Assembly (NCBI GenBank): GCA_021793575.1
Contig: JAJYSM010000001.1
Coordinates: 3,371-67,370 of the forward strand
Source of the DNA: Pseudomonadota bacterium
GTDB lineage: Bacteria > Pseudomonadota > Gammaproteobacteria > Xanthomonadales > Rhodanobacteraceae
Length of the DNA: 64,000 bases
Direction of reading: 5' to 3'
The position numbers and the translations under genes were made by a program. Under the pieces are notes generated by a model that had not been told where the DNA came from, ran no database searches, and saw only the letters and a list, made by a program, of their open reading frames with translations. This document shows positions 2,109 to 46,922 of this stretch, piece after piece (position 1 is the first letter of the stretch; every line of letters begins with the position of its first letter).

Positions 2109-3482
2109 TCAGTCGTGATGGCGCAGCAGGTCGAGCAGCGCCGCGCGCGGCAGCTTGCCGGTCTCGTTGCGTGGCAGCGCGTCGACCAGCCGCAGCGGCC
2201 GCGGCAGGAACAGCGGATCGATCGCAAGGCGCAGGGCGTCGAGAATCGCGTGCTCGTCCAGCCCCGGCGCCACCGCCAGTGCGGCGATCCGGTGCACGCC
2301 CAGCGCATCGCCGTCATCGAGCTGCAGCACCACGCCGTCCTGCACGCCGGGTATCGCCAGCAGGCGACGGGTGAGGTCGCCGATCGAGGCGCGCTTGCCG
2401 GCGATCTCCAGCATGTCGGCGTGACGGCCGCGCAGGCGGAACCGGCGGCCGCCGTCGGACAGGCTGACGATGTCGGCCAGCGTGACCGCGGCGGCCAGCT
2501 GCGGCGCCTCGACTGCGGTGCCGTCCGGCTGCGGATGCAGGGTGACGCCTTCGTACAAAGTCCAGTCCTGCTCGCTCGCGGCGCGGCGGCTGGCGAACAC
2601 GCAGGTCTCGGTGGAGCCGAACACTTCCAGCAGCGGCGCCGCGAAGCGTCGCTCGGCCGCGCGCGCCAGTTCCGGCGGCAGCGGCGCGGTGGCCGACAGC
2701 ATGGCGGCGATCGGCGGCAGCACGATGCCGGACTCGACCAGTGCGCGCAGGTGCACCGGCGTGGTCACCAGCACGCGCGGTGCCGGCACCTCGGCCAGTG
2801 CCGCGGCTACATCGGCCGGCAGGAACGGGCGCCCGGCATGTACGCCGACCTCGCCGAGCAGCGGCAGCAGCACCGACATCTCCATGCCGTACATGTGCTG
2901 CGGCGGCACCGTGGTGACCACCGCGAAGCGCGCGCCGACCGCCGCGCGCAGCAGCGCCAGGTTGCCTGCGTTGCTGGCGTGGAAGCTGTCCCAGGTCTTC
3001 AGATTGGCGCTGGGCACGCCGGTGGAACCGGAGGTGTAGCCGATCGCCACCACCTGCTCGGCGGGGATCAGCGGCCACACCGGCTGCGCTGTCAGCGGCC
3101 GCGCAGCGTCCAGCGCCGGCAGCTGCAGATAGCCGCGCGGCGCCGGATCGAGCGGCAGCTCGCCCAGCGCATAGCAGCCTGGATGCGCCTGCATCACCTC
3201 GTCCACCGCCTGCGGCGCGCGCGAGGACGGCAGCAGGCTGGCCTGGCCGCGCAGCGCGATGGCGCAGAACGCGACCATGAAGGCGTAGCGGTTCTCGCAC
3301 AGATTCACCGCGCTCGGCGCAGCCGGCAGGGTCTCGGCCACGGCATGCACGTCGGCCAGAAACCGGGCGGCGCTGATCGCCACGCCCGCATGCCATGCCA
3401 CCACCCGCTGCGGATCGTTCGCGCTCAGCAGTGGCAGTCGCTGCGGCGCCTCGCGCTGGTAGGTGTCGTAAACGATGGCCAC
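2109..3482 (-). CDS. AMP-binding acyl/aryl-CoA ligase (aryl-polyene/xanthomonadin ligase-like)
   Basis: YTSGSTGVP A3 loop, PPQHMYG, EVFGSTET, GRHADMLEIAGKR. Start chosen at GTG 3482 with GGGAGA upstream; alternative ATG at 3527. Confidence 0.8.
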   Translation of the reverse strand: MAIVYDTYQREAPQRLPLLSANDPQRVVAWHAGVAISAARFLADVHAVAETLPAAPSAVNLCENRYAFMVAFCAIALRGQASLLPSSRAPQAVDEVMQAHPGCYALGELPLDPAPRGYLQLPALDAARPLTAQPVWPLIPAEQVVAIGYTSGSTGVPSANLKTWDSFHASNAGNLALLRAAVGARFAVVTTVPPQHMYGMEMSVLLPLLGEVGVHAGRPFLPADVAAALAEVPAPRVLVTTPVHLRALVESGIVLPPIAAMLSATAPLPPELARAAERRFAAPLLEVFGSTETCVFASRRAASEQDWTLYEGVTLHPQPDGTAVEAPQLAAAVTLADIVSLSDGGRRFRLRGRHADMLEIAGKRASIGDLTRRLLAIPGVQDGVVLQLDDGDALGVHRIAALAVAPGLDEHAILDALRLAIDPLFLPRPLRLVDALPRNETGKLPRAALLDLLRHHD

Positions 3483-3627
3483 GCCGTCTCCCGGATGTCG
3501 TTGATCAGTCGCGTTGCCAGGCAGCATCGCAGGCGCTGATGAACGCCAGCGTGAAGGCTGTGACAAGGTCATTCGGCTGCGCTGCGCGTGCCTGGCGTGA
3601 CCGCGGGCGCGCTGCGTTCCCCCCGCT

Positions 3628-4200
3628 TCAACCGCGGATGATAGCGCCCGAGAGCGCATCGCGGATCGGCGTGGGCATGGCCTGGCCGCCCAACGGAGCG
3701 TCCAGCAGGCCGTCCAGTGCGTCGCCGAAGCTGCTCGCCACCGCCTGCGCCGTGCGCGCCGCCGGCTGCCCGTGCGGGTTGGCGCTGGTCGACACCAGCG
3801 CACCGCCGAACGCACGGCACAGCGCGGCGGCTGGCGCATGCGCGGTGACGCGCAATGCGATGCCAGCGTGCGCGCCGGCGACCCACGCCGGCACGTCAGT
3901 CGCGCGCGGAAACACCCAGGTATGCGGCCCCGGCCAGCTCGCCTGCACCTGCTGCAGCACCTGCGGCGGCACCGCAGCGAGGTCGATGTAGGGCGCCAGC
4001 TGCGCGAAGTCCGCGCCGATCAGCAGCACGCCCTGCGTCGGCGGCCGCTGCTTGAGGGCAAACAGCCGCCGGAATGCCGCCTCGTCCTGCGGGTCGCAGC
4101 CGAGGCCGAAGACGGCCTCGGTCGGGTAGGCCAGCACGCCGCCGCGGCGCAGCAGGGCGGCGGCGGCATCGAGCCCGGCGAGGGTGAAATGCTGCAGCAC
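3628..4200 (-). CDS. tsaC: L-threonylcarbamoyladenylate synthase (Sua5/YrdC)
   Basis: AYPTEAVFGLGCDP, LKQRP, WPGPHT, LVSTSAN motifs. Confidence 0.93.
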   Translation of the reverse strand: MLQHFTLAGLDAAAALLRRGGVLAYPTEAVFGLGCDPQDEAAFRRLFALKQRPPTQGVLLIGADFAQLAPYIDLAAVPPQVLQQVQASWPGPHTWVFPRATDVPAWVAGAHAGIALRVTAHAPAAALCRAFGGALVSTSANPHGQPAARTAQAVASSFGDALDGLLDAPLGGQAMPTPIRDALSGAIIRG

Positions 4201-6729
4201 TCAGGCCTCGGCTTTCGCCGCCGCGGTCTTGCCGGTGGCCGCTTTCCGGGTGGCCGTTTTCTTCGTGGCGGTCTTGCGCGCGGCGGTATTCTTGCTGGCC
4301 GCGGTTTTCTTCGGCGCCGCCCGTTTCGCGATGGCCTTGCTGGCCGCGGTCTTGCTGGCGGGCGCCTTCGGCACGGCGGCTTTCTTGACGGTCGCTTTCT
4401 TGCTGGCGGTCTTCTTGCCGAAGCGGCCCTTGCGCACCGGCGCGGCGGCGAGCAGCTCCAGGCACTGCGCCTCGGTCAGCTCCTTCGGCTCCTGCTCTTT
4501 CGGAATGCGCGCGTTCTTCTCGCCGTCGGTGATGTAGGCGCCGTAGCGGCCGTTCAGCACCTGCACGCCGTTGCCGAAGTCGAGGATCAGCCGGTTCGCC
4601 AGCATCTCCAGCTTCTCGGCCACGATCTGCAGCGCGCGCGGCAGATCGATGGTGTACGGGTCGTCCTCGGGCTTGAGCGAGGCATAGGTGCTGCCCTGCT
4701 TCACGAACGGCCCGAAACGGCCGACGCCCACGCTCACCGCGTCGCCGTTTTCCGCCTCCCCCAGCTGGCGCGGCAGCTTGAACAGCTCCAGCGCGTCGGC
4801 CAGGCTGATGGTGTGCATGCTCTGGCCGGTGCGCAGGCTGGCGAACGCGGGCTTGTCCTCGTCCTCCTTGGTGCCGATCTGCGCGAACGGCCCGTAGCGG
4901 CCCAGCCGCACCGATACCGGCTTGCCGGTTTTCGGATCGACGCCCAAATCGCGCGCGCCGGTGGCCTCGTTGCGGTCGACCGACTCGGTCTTCTCGTCCA
5001 CCTGCTGCTTGAACGGCAGCCAGAAGCGCTCCATCAGCGGCACCCACGCCTCCTCGCCGCGGCTGACCGCGTCCAGCTCGTCCTCCATCTTGGCGGTGAA
5101 GTCGTAGTCGACGTAGCGGGTGAAGTGCTGGGTCAAGAACTTGCTGACCGCGCGGCCGACGTCGCTGGGCTTGAAGCGGCGGCTGTCGAGGATCACGTAC
5201 TCGCGGTTCTGCAGCACCTGGATGATGCTGGCGTAGGTGGACGGCCGGCCGATGCCGTGCTCCTCCAGCGCCTTGACCAGGCTCGCCTCGGAATAGCGCG
5301 GCGGCGGCTCGGTGAAATGCTGGTCGGCGGCGATCTCGTGCAGCGGCACCTGCTCGCCTGCCAGCATGCGCGGCAGGCGGCGGCCCTCGTCGTCGTCCTC
5401 GGCCGTTTTCTGATCGCGGCCCTCCTCGTACACGGCGAGGAAGCCCGGATCGACCACGGTGGTGCCGCTGGCGCGGAACGAGGCATCGCCACCGGCCACG
5501 TGCGGCACCGCAAACTCCACCGAGACGGTGTTGAGCGTGGCGTGGATCATCTGGCAGGCTACGGTGCGCTTCCAGATCAGCTCGTACAGCTTGCGCTGGT
5601 CGTCATTGAGAAACGCCGCCACCGCCTTCGGCGTATGCATGGCGGAGGTCGGACGGATCGCCTCATGCGCCTCCTGGGCGTTCTTCGACTTGGTCTTGTA
5701 GACCTGCGCCGCATCTGGAAGCGCCTTGGCGCCGAAGTCGCGCGCGATCAGCTGACGCAGCTCGGCCACCGCATCGTCGCCGAGCATGGTGGAGTCGGTA
5801 CGCATGTAGGTGATCAGGCCGACGTTGCCCTCGTCGCCCAGCGCCACGCCCTCGTACAGGCCCTGCGCCACCTTCATCGTGCGGCTGGTGGTGAAGCCGA
5901 GCTTGCGCGCGGCCTCCTGCTGCAGCGTGGAGGTGGTGAACGGCGCGGCCGGGCGCCGCTTGCGCTCCTTCGAGCTGACGTCACTGACGGTGAGGCGGCC
6001 GCGCGCGGCCTGCTTCAGCGCGTCGCGGGCGGCCATGGCGTCAGCTTCGGCGGTGAGGTCGAACTGTTCGAACTTCTTGCCGTTGAGCTTGGAGAGGCGC
6101 GCCGTGAAATCGCCCTCCGCATGCTGCAGCTGCGCCTCGATGGTCCAGTATTCGCGCGCCTTGAACGCCTCGATCTCCTCCTCACGCTCGACGATCATGC
6201 GCAGCGCCGGCGACTGCACGCGGCCGGCCGACAGCCCGCGCTGCACCTTGCGCCAGAGCACCGGCGAAAGGTTGAAGCCGACCAGGTAATCCAGCGCGCG
6301 GCGCGCCTGCTGCGCGTCGACCAGGTCGTGCGAGAGCTGGCGCGGGTTGGCCACGGCGGCCTTGATCGCCTTCGGGGTGATCTCGGAGAACACCACCCGA
6401 TGCAGCCGCTTGCCTTCGGTAAGACCGCGCTCCTTGAGGATCTCGCTGATATGCCAGCTGATCGCCTCGCCTTCGCGATCCAAGTCGGTTGCCAGATAGA
6501 TGTCGTCGGCCAGCCTGGCCGCCTTGGCGATCGCGTCGACGTGCTTCTCGTTGCGCTCGATCACCTCGTAGGCCATGGTGAAACCGTGCTCGGTATCGAC
6601 CGCGCCCTCTTTCGGCTTCAGGTCACGCACGTGGCCGTAGGAAGCCAGGACATGAAAATCCTTGCCGAGGTATTTGTTGATCGTCTTGGCCTTGGCCGGC
6701 GATTCGACGATGAGCAGGTTTTTTGCCAT
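4201..6729 (-). CDS. topA: DNA topoisomerase I with Lys/Ala-rich C-terminal tail
   Basis: LLIVESPAKAKTI, ATDLDREGEAI, SAGRVQS, ITYMRTDS (catalytic Tyr), QEAHEAIRPT. Confidence 0.98.
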   Translation of the reverse strand: MAKNLLIVESPAKAKTINKYLGKDFHVLASYGHVRDLKPKEGAVDTEHGFTMAYEVIERNEKHVDAIAKAARLADDIYLATDLDREGEAISWHISEILKERGLTEGKRLHRVVFSEITPKAIKAAVANPRQLSHDLVDAQQARRALDYLVGFNLSPVLWRKVQRGLSAGRVQSPALRMIVEREEEIEAFKAREYWTIEAQLQHAEGDFTARLSKLNGKKFEQFDLTAEADAMAARDALKQAARGRLTVSDVSSKERKRRPAAPFTTSTLQQEAARKLGFTTSRTMKVAQGLYEGVALGDEGNVGLITYMRTDSTMLGDDAVAELRQLIARDFGAKALPDAAQVYKTKSKNAQEAHEAIRPTSAMHTPKAVAAFLNDDQRKLYELIWKRTVACQMIHATLNTVSVEFAVPHVAGGDASFRASGTTVVDPGFLAVYEEGRDQKTAEDDDEGRRLPRMLAGEQVPLHEIAADQHFTEPPPRYSEASLVKALEEHGIGRPSTYASIIQVLQNREYVILDSRRFKPSDVGRAVSKFLTQHFTRYVDYDFTAKMEDELDAVSRGEEAWVPLMERFWLPFKQQVDEKTESVDRNEATGARDLGVDPKTGKPVSVRLGRYGPFAQIGTKEDEDKPAFASLRTGQSMHTISLADALELFKLPRQLGEAENGDAVSVGVGRFGPFVKQGSTYASLKPEDDPYTIDLPRALQIVAEKLEMLANRLILDFGNGVQVLNGRYGAYITDGEKNARIPKEQEPKELTEAQCLELLAAAPVRKGRFGKKTASKKATVKKAAVPKAPASKTAASKAIAKRAAPKKTAASKNTAARKTATKKTATRKAATGKTAAAKAEA

Positions 6730-41357: not shown

Positions 41358-41594
41358 CGGCGATCCATTGGTCGGAAAGTGCCCAACCTTAGCAACTCCG
41401 CGCCAGCGGCACGACCCGACCCATGGCAGGCGGCATAAGTTCGAGTAGGCCGGATGGCGGTTTATCCGGCGGTGCTGCACTACCCGCCAACGGAGCAGCA
41501 GCGCCACGCAGCAACCTGCGGATACCCGGCACATTGCCTGCAGGCACCCTGCTGACAGCCTCCGCCAGGCTAAAGGCGCACCACGATGCGTCTC

Positions 41595-41623
41595 TTGCCC
41601 GCATGTACTTAAATAGGTACTAT
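41595..41623 (+). promoter_or_regulatory. Sigma-70 promoter with overlapping GTAC-N8-GTAC operator for the RelE/HTH TA pair
   Basis: TTGCCC-17 nt-TACTAT ending 6 nt before GTG 41630; GTACTTAAATAGGTAC imperfect palindrome at 41605-41620. Confidence 0.55.
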
Positions 41624-41629
41624 CGCGGC

Positions 41630-41977
41630 GTGCCAACTTCTCCTCTTCTCGAAGTTCGCTTCTACGCCACGGATGCAGGCCGCGAGCCGGTTCGCGACTG
41701 GCTGAAGTCCCTGATGCCTGACGCGCGCAAGGCGATCGGCGAAGACATCAAGACCATACAGTTCGGCTGGCCCTTGGGTATGCCATTGGTGCGCAAGATG
41801 GAACCGGGATTGTGGGAGGTGCGCAGCACGCTCGACACGGGGATTGCCCGTGTGCTGTTCACAACGGCCGGCCCGGTCATGGTGCTCCTGCACGGCTTCA
41901 TCAAGAAGTCCGACAAGACACCCAAGGATGACCTGAAGCTGGCTCTGCGTCGCGCGAAGGAGGTTCATCATGGCTAA
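41630..41977 (+). CDS. RelE/ParE-superfamily toxin (Gp49/DUF891, HigB-like)
   Basis: FYATDAGREPVRDWL, QFGWPLGMPLVRKM, LWEVRS, VLLHGFIKKSDKTP. Confidence 0.88.
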   Translation: MPTSPLLEVRFYATDAGREPVRDWLKSLMPDARKAIGEDIKTIQFGWPLGMPLVRKMEPGLWEVRSTLDTGIARVLFTTAGPVMVLLHGFIKKSDKTPKDDLKLALRRAKEVHHG

Positions 41978-42263
41978 GCACAATGCTCACATCGGCAGCA
42001 CGCTGGACGATGTTCTCGCCGAGGACGGCGTACTCGAAGAAGTATCGACGCGTGCGATCAAACGCGTGATTGCCTGGCAGTTGCAGGAAGCCATGAGGGC
42101 TCAGGGCCTCACCAAGACGGCGATGGCCCGGCGCATGCACACCAGCCGCTCGATGCTCGACCGGCTACTCAGCGAGACCGACACCGGCCTGACCCTCGAC
42201 ACACTCAGCCGTGCAGCCCAGGCGCTGGGCTACCGGGTGAAAGTGGAACTGGCGGCAGCGTAG
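41970..42263 (+). CDS. XRE-HTH antitoxin (HigA-like)
   Basis: HIGSTLDDVL...KRVIAWQL...GLTKTAMARRMHTSRSMLDRLL...TLDTL; overlaps the toxin by 8 nt. Confidence 0.88.
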   Translation: MAKHNAHIGSTLDDVLAEDGVLEEVSTRAIKRVIAWQLQEAMRAQGLTKTAMARRMHTSRSMLDRLLSETDTGLTLDTLSRAAQALGYRVKVELAAA

Positions 42264-42383
42264 GGGCGACGGACGCTCTTGGTCTTCTTTTCGTGAGCGC
42301 GAGCCGCTCAAACACAGTCGACCCCGTCTCACCGCCGCACAGGGGCCCCGGGTAGAGCGGCGCGCATCCTGCGTGCACTTCGG

Positions 42384-42420
42384 TCACCAACCATGCGGTG
42401 AGAGCGTGCAATCCCAATAT
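42384..42420. repeat. 37-bp direct repeat, copy 1
   Basis: TCACCAACCATGCGGTGAGAGCGTGCAATCCCAATAT; 35/37 identical to 43957-43993. Confidence 0.9.
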
Positions 42421-42613
42421 TGCAAACCGCCAGCTGGCTACCCACTCCGGACATCAAACCGGACGAGCTTCGCCAGCAAAACTGACCACGCGCGCCAGGA
42501 CGCTGACCAGCGTAGTCGACTGCCTCGATTGGGGAGGGTCAGTTTGACCCGGGAGCTGTCACTCACAGCATGGCGGGCAGGTTGCATCGGGATCGTTCAG
42601 ACATCAGACTGAG

Positions 42614-42631
42614 CTACAGACAAAACTGTAG
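42614..42631. promoter_or_regulatory. Perfect 6-6-6 inverted repeat upstream of the Xre antitoxin (putative operator)
   Basis: CTACAG-ACAAAA-CTGTAG, 12 bp before ATG 42644. Confidence 0.55.
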
Positions 42632-42643
42632 GTGGGCTGTGTG

Positions 42644-43150
42644 ATGAGCAATCTGAAACAGACGAAAACAATGCGTAAGGCGGGCCAGAAGGCCTCGTTT
42701 GCAAAGGCCGATCACTCGGTGGCGAACATGGCGCTCGCACAGTCACGCAAGGGCGTCGAGCGGGTGAAGATCGCCCACCATAGCGGCGTCAACGCCCTGT
42801 TGGCGAAATACGCCGACAAGAGGACGGGGAACGTCGTCGTGGACCGGCTGATTGACGGTACCGGATTCACCAAGAAGAACCTGGCGGGCACGCTTGGCAT
42901 CAGTATGGATGCGATGTACCGCCCGGATCGGGTCAACTCGCCCACCACGCAGGTGCGAATGCGCGAGATGCTTGAAATTCTCGGGCGCATCACCGACTGG
43001 GCGGGGGGCGAAGTGCAGGCGATGGCGTGGTACCGAGGCCAACCGATCCCGGCCTTCGGAGGTCGTACCGCCGAGTCCCTGGTCAAGTCCAATCAAGCGG
43101 GGCCATTGCGCGACTATCTGGACCACATGGCCATGGGTGGCTTTGCTTGA
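42644..43150 (+). CDS. Xre/MbcA/ParS-type antitoxin (DUF2384-like)
   Basis: HTH-like core then WAGGEVQAMAWYRGQPIPAFGGRTAESLV...YLDHMAMGGFA. Confidence 0.85.
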   Translation: MSNLKQTKTMRKAGQKASFAKADHSVANMALAQSRKGVERVKIAHHSGVNALLAKYADKRTGNVVVDRLIDGTGFTKKNLAGTLGISMDAMYRPDRVNSPTTQVRMREMLEILGRITDWAGGEVQAMAWYRGQPIPAFGGRTAESLVKSNQAGPLRDYLDHMAMGGFA

Positions 43151-43677
43151 GGTTTGCGGGAAGGGCCTACCGGGGCCATGACCCGCAGTGGGCGTTCGCA
43201 CCGCTGTCGGGTGATGGGGCAGCGGTCTACGGCGGGCGCTTCAATCCAAAAGGTGTTGCCGCGCTGTACCTCGCGCTGTCCCCGACGGGGGCGATCAACG
43301 AGGTGTGCCAGGGTCTTGCTTCCCGCATTGCCCCGATGACCTTGGTCGAATACGAAGTGGATTGCACTGACATCCACGACTTGACGGACGCCGCGGCTCG
43401 CGCTGCGCTGGGGATTGCGAAATCGGACATGGCCTGCAATTGGGGTGATGAGGCCTTGATCGCTGGCAAGACGCCGGCATCGTGGGCGATCGCAACGAGG
43501 CTCATCGCGGGCGGCGCGGCGGGCATCATCGTGCCGAGCTATGCCCAGGAGGCAGCTGCCGATCACCGGAATCTCGTGCTGTGGAAGCGGGGGAACCGGC
43601 GCCCGCATCGTGTCCGGGCCTACGATCCCACCGGCAAGCTTCCCGCGAACCAACTGTCCTGGCCGAAATCTCGGTAG
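43147..43677 (+). CDS. RES-domain toxin (NAD+ phosphorylase family)
   Basis: TTG overlapping the antitoxin TGA; AYRGH (R), GGRFNPKG, AINE (E), IIVPS (S), NLVLW. Confidence 0.87.
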   Translation: MRFAGRAYRGHDPQWAFAPLSGDGAAVYGGRFNPKGVAALYLALSPTGAINEVCQGLASRIAPMTLVEYEVDCTDIHDLTDAAARAALGIAKSDMACNWGDEALIAGKTPASWAIATRLIAGGAAGIIVPSYAQEAAADHRNLVLWKRGNRRPHRVRAYDPTGKLPANQLSWPKSR

Positions 43678-43760
43678 AGCGCGTGTGGATCATGAGCGTT
43701 CCACCGCGTCTCGAGGCGGCAGCAGTTTCGCGACGCGGTGGGTCAGGGGGCGACTCGGCT

Positions 43761-43940
43761 CTGATGGTGCTGACCAACGACAGTCGCACCGGGCTGGCGC
43801 TGGCCACGCTGGCGCTGGTGCACTCGACCCTCGGCGGCGCCGTGCTGCTGGCCGGCACCGGCATGTTCGGCGGCATCGCGCAGATCGCCATCGTCAGCTG
43901 GATCCAGCGCCGGGTGGCGCCGGCGATGATGGGCCGCAGC
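43761..43940 (+). pseudogene. Internal fragment of an MFS transporter gene
   Basis: GLALATLALVHSTLGGAVLLAGTGMFGGIAQIAIVSWIQRRVAPAMMGRS: two TM helices plus a Q-x(n)-GR loop, truncated at both ends. Confidence 0.55.
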
Positions 43941-43956
43941 AACGCACCCTTCACAA

Positions 43957-43993
43957 TCACCAACAATGCGGTGATAGCGTGCAATCCCAATAT
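43957..43993. repeat. 37-bp direct repeat, copy 2 (coincides with the 3' end of the hypothetical gene)
   Basis: TCACCAACAATGCGGTGATAGCGTGCAATCCCAATAT. Confidence 0.9.
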
Positions 43994-44331
43994 CGGACGG
44001 AACAGAATTTACCGACGAAATCATAGAGCTTGCCGCGGCATGTTAGTGACGCAACCTCGTCTGGCGTGGCAGGCCGCAAACCGAGAAATTCGTGGAAGGC
44101 GATGTCATCGATGGTCGGACCATCACTAAGTTCGTACAGCTCGTTGTAGAGCGTCGGCACGCCGATTTGTTCGGCCACGAAATACTCGTAGCTATCGCAG
44201 GCTCCGCGGATCAACAACTCCAGCTTTTCACTGCACTCGCCGCGCAACAACAGCCGACCGGGCGTGCTGACGTTGTCGGCATCGCCGTATCGATAGACGA
44301 AAACGCTGTGCCGCTTTTCAGCCTTCGCCAT
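43957..44331 (-). CDS. Hypothetical protein (resembles uncharacterised mobile-element proteins)
   Basis: MAKAEKRHSVFVYRYGDADN...YFVAEQIGVPTLY...DDIAFHEF; start overlaps the end of the upstream gene. Confidence 0.65.
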   Translation of the reverse strand: MAKAEKRHSVFVYRYGDADNVSTPGRLLLRGECSEKLELLIRGACDSYEYFVAEQIGVPTLYNELYELSDGPTIDDIAFHEFLGLRPATPDEVASLTCRGKLYDFVGKFCSVRYWDCTLSPHCW

Positions 44332-44611
44332 CGTCATCTTCCTCATGATCGAAGTCGTCGAGGAAGTAGATGGCGTCGCGAAGCTCGTCCGTCCAAGGCT
44401 TTTTAGTCATCACGTAGCCCATGCGGTTGACGATGTGGAAACCGGGCGGCGCGTACCAGTTGCCGTCCTCGTCGGAGCCGGATTCGATAATGGTCCAGAC
44501 GTGGTTGAGCGGTTGATCCTTGACGTCCTCGAACTCAAACATAACGCCGCTGGCCTTCTGGATCACGCCCCAGTCATCCTAAAACTCGTCTTCGCTGATG
44601 GTGTCATCCAT
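44318..44611 (-). pseudogene. Acidic hypothetical protein with in-frame TAG at codon 11
   Basis: GGAAAAGAG-ATG 44611: MDDTISEDEF*DDWGVIQKASGVMFEFEDVKDQPLNHVWT...; TAG at 44581-44579. Confidence 0.65.
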
Positions 44612-44620
44612 CTCTTTTCC

Positions 44621-46666
44621 TCAGCGTGTGGCGGATGTGTCCAGCGTGGCCGAGCGATGCCGGCCGATAAAGGCAAGATCGGGAACGAACCGTTCGGGCA
44701 ATTCGATCTGCTTGTCTTCGATCGACCAAAACACCTCATGCAGGAACGCATCCTTGCTGGCCTTGAGCCGCGCGGACAGCACGATGCGCCAGTCGTCGCT
44801 GAGGGTGAAAAGGTGGCTGTCGAACGCCTTGTCATGGATGGCGGAGAGGCATAGCCCATTGCTTGGGTTGAGTCGGTTCGCCTTATCGGCACTCCACGGC
44901 ACGATATGGCTGGCGACGAGCAGGCGCGTGTCGGAGACGCCGGAGATGCAGCAGCGATCGCGATAGCTACTCAGCACCGCGCGACGAAAGAAGTTTTGCT
45001 TGATGCGCTGCTGCACGAGCGCTTGGCGCGTTTCGCCGGTGAAGTCGGTTAGCGCGATGCCATCGGTCTTCTCGACGGGCATGTCGTCGTTCAGACCATG
45101 CTCGCGCAGCAAGTATTGGCGGAGTTGCTCGCACTCGACGGCGAGTCGTTCCCAGTCGGCATGGAATTCGTTCCAAATCTCCTCGTCGAGGTGGGAGTGA
45201 TTCGTCAAGCCCACCCTTCCGCTCGCAATGATCGCCGGATCCAGACCTGCGAGGTTTCCGCATTTCCTTGCCACCGCACTGGGCGTTCGACCGATGAGTC
45301 TGGCGAGCTCGATGAGCTTTTTGTTCCGTGAGTGAAGTTGCCCAAATGGCGTCTGGCAATAAAAATGAAACGCGAGCTTGGTCTGCTCCGGTGTCCACAG
45401 TCCGCTGCTCGAAAAAGCGTTGGATGAGACGGTGAGCGTGTCGGTCACGGCAGCTTCCTTGGCAATGAGCTTGGAAGCCACACACTTTGCTACCGCATCG
45501 ATCATCGGCACAACCGCCGCTTCGGCGATGAGCTGGTAAGCCTGCGTATCGCTCACCGGTATCTTGAAGCTGTCCGGCAAGCCCATCAGCCGCGCGCACT
45601 CCCGCGGCGTCAGTCTTCGGGGTCGCTTTCGCGCACCCTGCGATACCAGCACTTCCGAGCCGTCCTTGTAGTAGCGGGCGGACAGCGTGCGGGTGACGCT
45701 GTCGCCGTCGACCAGCCCGAAGCCGAAGCCGTTGCCGGCGGCCTTGTGCTTGGCGGCGTAGGTCTGCAGGTAGGTCCACAGGTTGGCGGTGAGCGTGTAG
45801 CGGGCGTCGATCTTCGCCTTCGGGCCGATGGTGTAGTGCGACTCGGGCAGTTCGCTGCCGTCCTGCGGGTGCAGGATGGATTTCAGGCGCGGGCCGTCCT
45901 TGGGCAGCTGCAGGTCGTCCCACGCGAAATCGGTCGGCTCGCGGAAGCCGACGATGAGGATGCGCTCGCGGTGCTGCGGCACGAAGTGCTGGCCGTCGAT
46001 GACCTTGCAGTGGATGTGATAACCGAGGTCTTTTTCCAGCACCTTCCTGATCACGCGAAAGGTGTTGCCCTTGTCGTGGCTGACCAGGTTCTTCACGTTC
46101 TCCAGCAGGAACGCCGCAGGCCGTTTCGCCTTGATGATGCGCGCCACGTCGAAGAACAGCGTGTCCTGCGTCTCGTCGGCGAAGCCGTGCGCGCGGCCGA
46201 GCGAGTTCTTTTTCGACACGCCGGCAATGCTGAAGGGCTGGCAGGGAAAGCCGGCCAGCAGCACGTCGTGGTCGGGGACGTCACGCTCGTCCACCGTGGT
46301 GATGTCGCCGGCGAACGCGTGGGCGGCGTCGGGGAAGTTGGCCAGATAGGTTTTCTGCGCGTACGGGTTCCATTCGCTGGTGAACACGCAGCGCCCGCCG
46401 TGCGCCTCGAAGCCGATGCGGATGCCGCCGATGCCGGCGAACAGATCGATGAAGGTGAAGGCGGCGGCGCCTTTTCCGGACTGCGGCTCCAGTGGCAGCA
46501 GACGCTGGCGGATGGCGTCGACGTGATAGGCCGGCGGCTCGGTTTCACCCAGCTGCCAGCGCCGCACGGTGCGTGCGTTGACGCCGAGCAGATCGGCGAG
46601 CTCCTTCTGCGTGTAACGACCGTGCAGGCTGGCCAGCAGGTGCCGGATGTCTTCCATGAAGTACAT
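44621..46666 (-). CDS. dcm: Fusion: XRE-HTH + Dcm-like C5-cytosine methyltransferase + HNH endonuclease
   Basis: One open frame: TQKELADLLGVNARTVRRW (HTH); DLFAGIGG, GFPCQPFS, ENV, QHRER, RRLTPRECARLMG (C5 MTase); RCCISG...ASHIVPW...NGLCLSAIHDKAFD (HNH_2). Start 46666 or 46657. Confidence 0.88.
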   Translation of the reverse strand: MYFMEDIRHLLASLHGRYTQKELADLLGVNARTVRRWQLGETEPPAYHVDAIRQRLLPLEPQSGKGAAAFTFIDLFAGIGGIRIGFEAHGGRCVFTSEWNPYAQKTYLANFPDAAHAFAGDITTVDERDVPDHDVLLAGFPCQPFSIAGVSKKNSLGRAHGFADETQDTLFFDVARIIKAKRPAAFLLENVKNLVSHDKGNTFRVIRKVLEKDLGYHIHCKVIDGQHFVPQHRERILIVGFREPTDFAWDDLQLPKDGPRLKSILHPQDGSELPESHYTIGPKAKIDARYTLTANLWTYLQTYAAKHKAAGNGFGFGLVDGDSVTRTLSARYYKDGSEVLVSQGARKRPRRLTPRECARLMGLPDSFKIPVSDTQAYQLIAEAAVVPMIDAVAKCVASKLIAKEAAVTDTLTVSSNAFSSSGLWTPEQTKLAFHFYCQTPFGQLHSRNKKLIELARLIGRTPSAVARKCGNLAGLDPAIIASGRVGLTNHSHLDEEIWNEFHADWERLAVECEQLRQYLLREHGLNDDMPVEKTDGIALTDFTGETRQALVQQRIKQNFFRRAVLSSYRDRCCISGVSDTRLLVASHIVPWSADKANRLNPSNGLCLSAIHDKAFDSHLFTLSDDWRIVLSARLKASKDAFLHEVFWSIEDKQIELPERFVPDLAFIGRHRSATLDTSATR

Positions 46667-46685
46667 TCTCGCTATGGGATAATAT

Positions 46686-46702
46686 GCGGCCAGTCTGTCC
46701 GC
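46686..46702. promoter_or_regulatory. 17-bp near-palindrome upstream of the HTH-MTase (putative autoregulatory site)
   Basis: Minus strand GCGGACAGACTGGCCGC directly before TATTAT (46684-46679), about 20 bp from the ATG. Confidence 0.5.
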
Positions 46703-46790
46703 TTTATTTCCCTTTTTCAAGTGCTCCGACAGATGGCCCGGGGCGGAATCAGCCGACCTGATTGGTGTCGAACCTCAGCACACCACCGAT

Positions 46791-46922
46791 CCGGTTCCCG
46801 CCGAGCCCTTCGACGGGCTCAGGACAGGCGTAGCTTGCGCAAGCAAGCGAAGTCCGGTCGAAGCGCTGAATGGTCGATGCCCTTCGACTTCGGCGCTACG
46901 CGCCTGCGCTCAGGGCGAACGG
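46791..46922. repeat. Degenerate REP-like palindromic element (CCCTTCGAC...GCTCAGG type)
   Basis: Two CCCTTCGAC...GCTCAGG units (46806, 46880), with a left arm partly complementary to ...GCTCAGGGCGAACGG. Confidence 0.55.

Follow-up and report, generated by a model that had tools for sequence, protein, structure and literature searches.

A duplicated gene end beside an Xre/RES toxin-antitoxin cassette in an integrase-free islet of a Rhodanobacter genome

Introduction

Some mobile elements use the 3' ends of protein-coding genes as insertion sites, e14 and phage 21 at icd among them. Insertion with long target duplication of restriction-modification (R-M) gene complexes was reportedly described by Nobusato et al. 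in 2000. Examples are known from R-M gene complexes that lack mobility genes; they are frequent among transformable bacteria, and Xylella is among the reported cases (PMC2853133; Furuta, Abe and Kobayashi 2010). Cis-mobilizable elements (CIMEs) are a known class of elements (PMC5704250), and homology-facilitated illegitimate recombination (HFIR) is established in transformable bacteria (PMC6382021). Here these systems are compared with a 37-bp direct repeat that accompanies an Xre/RES toxin-antitoxin (TA) cassette in a Rhodanobacter genome (assembly GCA_021793575.1, contig JAJYSM010000001.1, our contig C29). The 64,000-nucleotide stretch that was analysed (forward strand, 3,371 to 67,370) is referred to as the window, and coordinates are window positions. 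The initial annotation had read the repeat as the attL/attR attachment (att) sites of a roughly 1.57-kb islet, integrated into the 3' end of a protein-coding gene by a tyrosine recombinase acting in trans. The repeat is real. With about even confidence we read it as a recombination scar in a reshuffled islet without an integrase, tied to the arrival of the TA cassette; that it marks attachment sites is very unlikely. Entry of the Xre/RES cassette probably produced the duplication.

As in the long target duplications of R-M genes, the unit at this locus is small, selfish and devoid of a mobility gene, and its direct repeats exceed 30 bp, are unique in the genome, overlap gene 3' ends and align with a single copy in an insert-free related genome. 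The phenomenon has also been reported in the same order, the Xanthomonadales (Xylella). The locus departs from the described cases in that its cargo is a TA pair, that the right half alone survives of a presumed duplication of ~0.5 kb, and that the left copy is cut to 37 bp with its outer flank replaced, flank contiguity being found on one side of the two.

The repeat and the uninserted allele

The features on which the argument turns are the following.

42384-42420, minus strand: copy 1, an orphan 37-bp stub of the 3' end of a 129-amino-acid (aa) gene, comprising the stop codon, 11 codons and 1 nt
42421 to ~43733, plus strand: Xre/RES cassette (MbcA/ParS-type antitoxin and RES toxin), the inserted unit of 1.3 kb, with a 223-bp upstream region, Xre (42644-43150), RES (43147-43677) and a short 3' flank
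43734-43948, plus strand: relic of a major facilitator superfamily (MFS) transporter gene, 215 bp, codons ~295-363 of 430, still at its original position and in its original orientation
43942-43956, no strand: remnant (8-15 bp) of the spacer between the MFS and 129-aa genes, at the right edge of a microhomology deletion of ~200 bp (GCCGCAGCA)
43957-43993, minus strand: copy 2, where the intact 129-aa gene natively ends

The two copies are 35/37 (95%) identical and spaced 1573 bp apart, as found by a repeat search of the window and again by a pattern search, in which the 37-mer with up to three mismatches occurred twice against none expected from 100 shuffles. Copy 2 contains the last 11 codons and the stop (YWDCTLSPHCW-stop) of the open reading frame (ORF) 43957-44346, called as a gene at 43957-44331 (124/129 aa). 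Copy 1 reads YWDCTLSPHGW-stop, with an in-frame stop 7 codons upstream and no ORF there, and each copy holds a TCACC-N8-GGTGA dyad. On all of these points the initial annotation was accurate. A third copy is absent from the whole 3.2-Mb, 99.8%-complete genome, where the next-best match is 15 nt long, and a degenerate pattern for the exact 37-mer found no match across 185,579 species genomes. The longest run identical between the copies is only 18 nt, which rules out a de Bruijn assembly artefact for the repeat.

A looser 25-mer scan of metagenomes returned three contigs, and one of them, L103, is decisive. The initial annotation had suggested looking for a homologue of the target gene with one repeat copy and no cargo, and L103 is just such an allele: it lacks the cassette and carries an M16 peptidase gene, a 155-aa ORF, an intact MFS gene that converges on the 129-aa gene, a 34-bp spacer, the 129-aa gene tail and an 82-aa gene. 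It is 87-93% identical to the window. The MFS relic matches it at 192/207 positions, and the block 43942-44076 (spacer, tail and first 120 bp of the gene) at 124/137. At the boundary of spacer and tail, L103 reads GCCGCGGCATCGCCCTCTTCACAC followed directly by TCACC. Compared with it, the window has a deletion of ~200 bp between GGGCCGCA(G/C)CA, at MFS codon ~363, and CAGCCGCGGCA in the spacer. Uninserted L103 is collinear (91-93%) with 43734-43956, and with the 243 bp adjoining copy 2 on the left; the DNA there is thus resident and was next to copy 2 in the ancestor, and there is no attR-type junction. The unit that was inserted is thus 1.3 kb long (42421 to ~43733) and not 1.57 kb, and the idea that the MFS piece is cargo acquired elsewhere was rejected on the same collinearity. 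An att-like repeat can mislead in this way, with the uninserted allele turning a 1.57-kb islet into a 1.3-kb cassette and resident DNA.

Copy 1, copy 2 and the L103 tail differ pairwise at 2 positions, and from other alleles at at least 6, and so form one allele group. The private change in copy 1 replaces an invariant cysteine with glycine, as expected of a dead stub. Beyond the block shared with L103, the remaining 129-aa gene is only 57% identical to it. The gene is a mosaic: its last ~120 bp are ~93% identical between L103 and the window, and the 5' two-thirds belong to a different allele class, at 57% (L103 reverse complement 3566-4018).

The MFS relic matches a 430-aa MFS gene, with 81-91% or, in a second figure, 83-93% identity, in about 45 of 96 Rhodanobacter genomes. 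In relatives for which the flanks were fetched, this gene lies between M16 and resistance-nodulation-division (RND) genes, in the order M16-MFS-RND. No intact copy was found in the genome of the window, which has lost a transporter kept here by most of the genus, the relic alone remaining. An annotated 121-aa ORF (43764-44129) that crosses the relic and copy 2 is probably spurious.

Derivatives of the locus in relatives

On its right, the cassette flank joins MFS codon ~295, and the joint falls in 19 nt over which the two sequences are imperfectly homologous (cassette CTTGGCGACGATGGTCAG, MFS TTTCGCGACACGATGGGTCAG). The same joint is found in the closest genome (G036), in a clade of soil-metagenome contigs (L122 and L129-L132) and in the SHAF22 contigs (L123 and L125-L127), and was therefore formed once. 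The derivatives have eroded differently. In G036, everything from the M16 upstream region to a point within RES has been deleted. In the L122 clade, the stub has been lost through a 120-bp deletion (window 42347-42466). L130, in which the right side is still complete, has the cassette, MFS codons 295-430, an HNH gene and the 129-aa gene tail.

The SHAF22 contigs retain a partial orthologous stub to the left of the cassette (positions 2-19, with 17/18 matching and the C at position 9 shared), preceded by a different type of repetitive extragenic palindromic (REP) element, a hydrolase gene and a LysR gene; the genome of the window has orthologues of none of these. Transfer of blocks does occur, as this stub-cassette-MFS block sits in a genome with different left neighbours. 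What looked like a 10-nt spacer on the left of the SHAF22 stub belongs to the second REP type, as its last part. Additional 3' stubs of the 129-aa gene are present in G085 (250 bp, beside HicAB) and L102 (155 bp, beside M16).

Taken together, the locus is a well-resolved series of an ancestral, a cassette-bearing and four differently eroded derivative forms. The series shows small TA modules entering, and being overwritten in, a defence islet that has no integrase, with microhomology at the joints. The long-target-duplication footprint of R-M genes gains a bacterial TA case, and no major concept is changed.

Small deletions have arisen independently at the locus in relatives (L126 4130-4260; L122 2300-2370; L038 1490-1510). 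In L126, a 7-nt microhomology, GCGCTGG, is shared between MFS codon ~318 and HigA. Breakpoints at MFS codons 361-363 nearly coincide in L122 and the window.

Origin of the duplication

We give an even chance to a history in which the cassette inserted without a dedicated recombinase, with a long target duplication, and the left copy was later eroded to 37 bp. The ancestor would have had the order observed in L103: M16, the 155-aa ORF, a rightward MFS gene, the 34-bp spacer, and the leftward 129-aa and 82-aa genes. The 1.3-kb Xre/RES cassette would then have been spliced in by host recombination or end joining, an enzymology that we infer, with its left joint at +37 of the 3' end of the 129-aa gene and its right joint at MFS codon ~295, in the 19-nt patch. 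Read from left to right, the ancestral order has MFS codon ~295 before the +37 point, so that the left joint falls beyond the right one and the interval between them (about 0.48 kb in an L103-like genome) would be duplicated, the outcome known as "insertion with long target duplication"; both convergent genes would initially have remained intact. A single event for the two joints is the simplest account, since both joints in the window are cassette ends that are observed elsewhere.

The left copy would subsequently have been replaced, up to the stop codon, by a HigBA cassette and a REP element, probably by homologous crossing-over within the 37 bp, the partner being a haplotype that carried HigBA beside the gene end. 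Such a crossover would place the edge exactly where the homology with that haplotype begins. The haplotype itself is real: in L126, 9 nt separate the region downstream of HigA (90% identical to window 42213-42322) from the tail of a gene of the family, whose product ends in WDYSLSPHYF. A microhomology deletion would finally have removed 200 bp from the right copy. Both microhomologies, at the cassette/MFS joint and at this deletion, are present in the sequences, as are the ancestral gene order, the cassette ends and the erosion variants in relatives; the order of these later steps is our reconstruction. Copy 1 would on this history be a non-functional stub, a scar of cassette turnover in a hypervariable TA/defence islet between the M16 and RND genes.

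Measured against long target duplications, the locus shows repeats of more than 30 bp that are genome-unique and surround inserted genes without a mobility gene. L103 has the single copy, and the right flank is contiguous with it. The left outer flank in the window is REP/HigBA and not MFS, so the long-duplication reading fits only if the left copy was later replaced. Several observations weigh against this history. An intermediate with the full MFS gene and spacer to the left of copy 1 was found in no relative seen, and the lineages seen have other DNA left of the cassette (REP1/HigBA or REP2/hydrolase) or else a deletion. Within 5 nt of its stop codon the stub is joined by left flanks of two different kinds, an arrangement that is explained in part only: it would not be expected from random erosion and requires crossovers inside the stub or microhomology joints. 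The history does not explain what fixes the left end of the cassette, and in another genome, G024, the same cassette arrived with a deletion and without a duplication. Additionally, the junctions of copy 1 are known from one assembly only, as L116 is the same contig as the window.

It is possible, if doubtful, that the same product came from recombination between two haplotypes by HFIR, one with HigBA (and REP) beside the gene and no MFS, the other with the cassette in MFS. The 129-aa, 82-aa and Dcm-HNH genes would provide a long homologous stretch on the right, paired with an illegitimate joint 37 bp inside the recipient gene, the first 37 bp of which would survive as copy 1. The HigA-downstream DNA of L126, 9 nt from a family tail, speaks for such a recipient, as do haplotypes with the tail near M16 and no MFS (G098, L104, L102 and G097), and the identities to L103 (87% for M16, 93% for the MFS relic) suggest that the two sides differ in ancestry. 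The illegitimate joint, however, must then have hit the left end of the cassette by chance, at the same base as in G024 and L121. The SHAF22 stub beside unrelated left DNA would be a further coincidence, and the tail alleles of the MFS-less haplotypes known so far are different ones, diverging at 6-8 positions. The likeness to HFIR lies in one stretch of homology combined with a joint of short microhomology, here 7-19 nt at the cassette/MFS joint, at the 200-bp deletion and in L126. The classical form, in contrast, deletes recipient DNA and makes no duplication.

Our favoured history does without an integrase, whereas the initial annotation would have the copies be attL and attR of a CIME-like islet without one, integrated at the 3' end of the 129-aa gene by a tyrosine recombinase encoded elsewhere. 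We regard this as very unlikely. As in CIMEs and in elements that target the 3' ends of protein genes, a duplicated gene end brackets non-essential cargo, here a TA module, and the target gene is intact; the left edge of the stub falls at the stop codon in two different left contexts, and the genome does encode tyrosine recombinases (eight PF00589 matches, all on other contigs). Contig C29 has none, and the genome gave no match to the serine recombinase family (PF00239). Neither the interval between the copies nor the rest of the contig encodes a recombinase or transposase. A cognate integrase and a partner att copy are thus both missing from what was searched, namely C29 for the former and the genome for the latter. 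The cassette also occurs elsewhere without the repeat, and the inner flank of the would-be attR is resident DNA collinear with L103. What survives of the att-like bracketing is a duplicated gene end beside a mobile-looking cassette. As a recombination core, the dyad fares no better: it is coding sequence (the codons SPHCW and the stop), and folding gives it no stability beyond that of shuffles (z = -0.6 to -1.7). Use of the gene's 3' end as an attB would predict recurrence, and across 58 loci of the target-gene family there is neither a second tail nor an alternative cargo at +37.

Next to no weight can be given to a functional two-copy element, such as a terminator or protein-binding site, or to chance resemblance. 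The DNA of the gene tail is ~92% conserved in G012 and G098, against 68-76% for the remaining gene, as a functional repeat might be, but this conservation is explained by an invariant protein motif. No Rfam family matches within 41400-44700, the folding is not significant, and the terminator scan called no terminator at either copy. Chance resemblance is excluded by the shuffles.

The motif in question, WDCxLSPxC, is C-terminal and invariant in the family alignment; W-D-C-x-L-S-P-x-C ends every Rhodanobacter copy examined and recurs, with variation, in the 58 loci, which belong to Lysobacterales, Burkholderiales and others. On this comparison, copy 2 is simply the end of what is predicted to be a functional gene. 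Each of about 10 Rhodanobacter loci likewise has a single tail, and where TA cassettes (HicAB, HigBA) are neighbours in relatives, they lie outside the gene of the 129-aa family and never at +37.

The Xre/RES cassette as a unit

The RES domain is well matched (PF08808, E=9e-25), and the Xre_MbcA_ParS_C domain (PF09722, E=3e-5) scores 24.3 bits against a cut-off of 24.5. The matches of the pair to NCBIfam NF049844 and NF049845 are weak, far below the subfamily cut-offs. The pair is thus predicted to be a divergent member of the Xre/RES type II TA family, family membership being judged here from sequence. With the described members (MbcTA and ParST, the RES proteins of which are NAD+ phosphorylases) it shares both domains, the antitoxin-first order and a 4-bp gene overlap.

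The cassette was found in other contexts (G024, L121, L118, L119, L117 and G029), in all cases without the 37-bp repeat. On contig C35 of G024 it lies among REP elements and other TA genes, in L121 beside an MNT/HepT pair, in L118 beside an etfA fragment, and in L119 inside an island that bears an integrase. The left end falls on one and the same base, 42421 (TGCAAACCGCCAGC...), in the window, in G024 (L037 3825) and in L121 (1038), three contexts that are unrelated. The right end varies within 43722-43748 (~25 bp) across six contexts. A shorter version, starting at about 42571, occurs in two contexts, L117 and L118. In 400 genomes of the family the only additional copies are distant ones, and on plasmids similarity to the cassette is at the coding level only, in rhizobia. 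G024 and L121 lack the TGCAAT-N6-ATTGCA palindrome that the window has at the copy 1 joint.

Tentatively, the Xre/RES cassette, and perhaps Rhodanobacter TA cassettes generally, may be a recombinase-less mobile unit with one exactly fixed end (42421) that settles beside convergent gene ends. Such a unit would leave behind a long target duplication, as in the window and in an array of etfA tails in G024, or a deletion, and orphan gene-end stubs would be the footprints of a TA mobility route so far described only for R-M genes. No attC cores (GTTRRRY/RYYYAAC) and no 11-6-11 Xer or dif-like sites were seen by eye at 42421 or 43733, and readings of the unit as an integron gene cassette or as a Xer (dif-like) module were rejected because its ends lack core sites.

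The etfA array lies on the same G024 contig (L037), where four copies of the etfA 3' end are present (982-1119, 3422-3566, 5428-5541 and 5959-6123). Three are orphans, 83-98% identical. The tails separate TA cassettes (PIN with MazEF; Xre/RES with a 99-aa gene) and end at +148, +150 and +170, so that the pattern of orphan tail plus cassette is seen again at an unrelated core gene. A candidate 44-nt "gene tail" to the left of the G024 cassette may be a chance open frame.

Gene content of the islet

Around the repeat and the cassette, the islet contains three other features.

41603-42263, plus strand: cassette of a HigB-like (Gp49/RelE) toxin and a helix-turn-helix antitoxin (HigBA), identified with Pfam and NCBIfam
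42317-42383, plus strand: truncated multi-copy genus repeat resembling REP elements or miniature inverted-repeat transposable elements (MITEs), abutting the stop codon of copy 1
43957-44566, minus strand: pair of 129-aa and 82-aa genes of an unknown family, upstream partner of the Dcm-HNH gene (44621-46720)

On the left, two M16 peptidase genes on the minus strand end at about 41357, and a terminator (42261-42290) was called after the HigBA cassette. To the right of copy 2, the minus strand carries the 129-aa gene, the 82-aa gene, a gene for a Dcm-HNH fusion and an AAA ATPase gene, and an RND gene starts from about 48430.

The 82-aa and 129-aa genes have no match in Pfam, NCBIfam or PADLOC, and the 129-aa protein has no database record by exact sequence. 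The two genes are fused into one 187-aa ORF in G034 and G009 (L015 1849-2412; L016 2221-2784). In most loci examined, an HNH_2 nuclease gene adjoins the pair, either free-standing (288-298 aa) or fused to Dcm. It may be that the pair is an uncharacterised partner of the HNH_2 nuclease.

The REP/MITE-like family to which 42317-42383 belongs has dozens of matches in each genome of the genus, which often pair up in inverted orientation, 150-250 bp from each other; the 3' hairpin is missing from the copy beside the stub. A second, different REP/MITE-like repeat is located at 46842-46904. The genome also encodes two Y1 (RAYT-like) transposases, on contigs C118 and C22.

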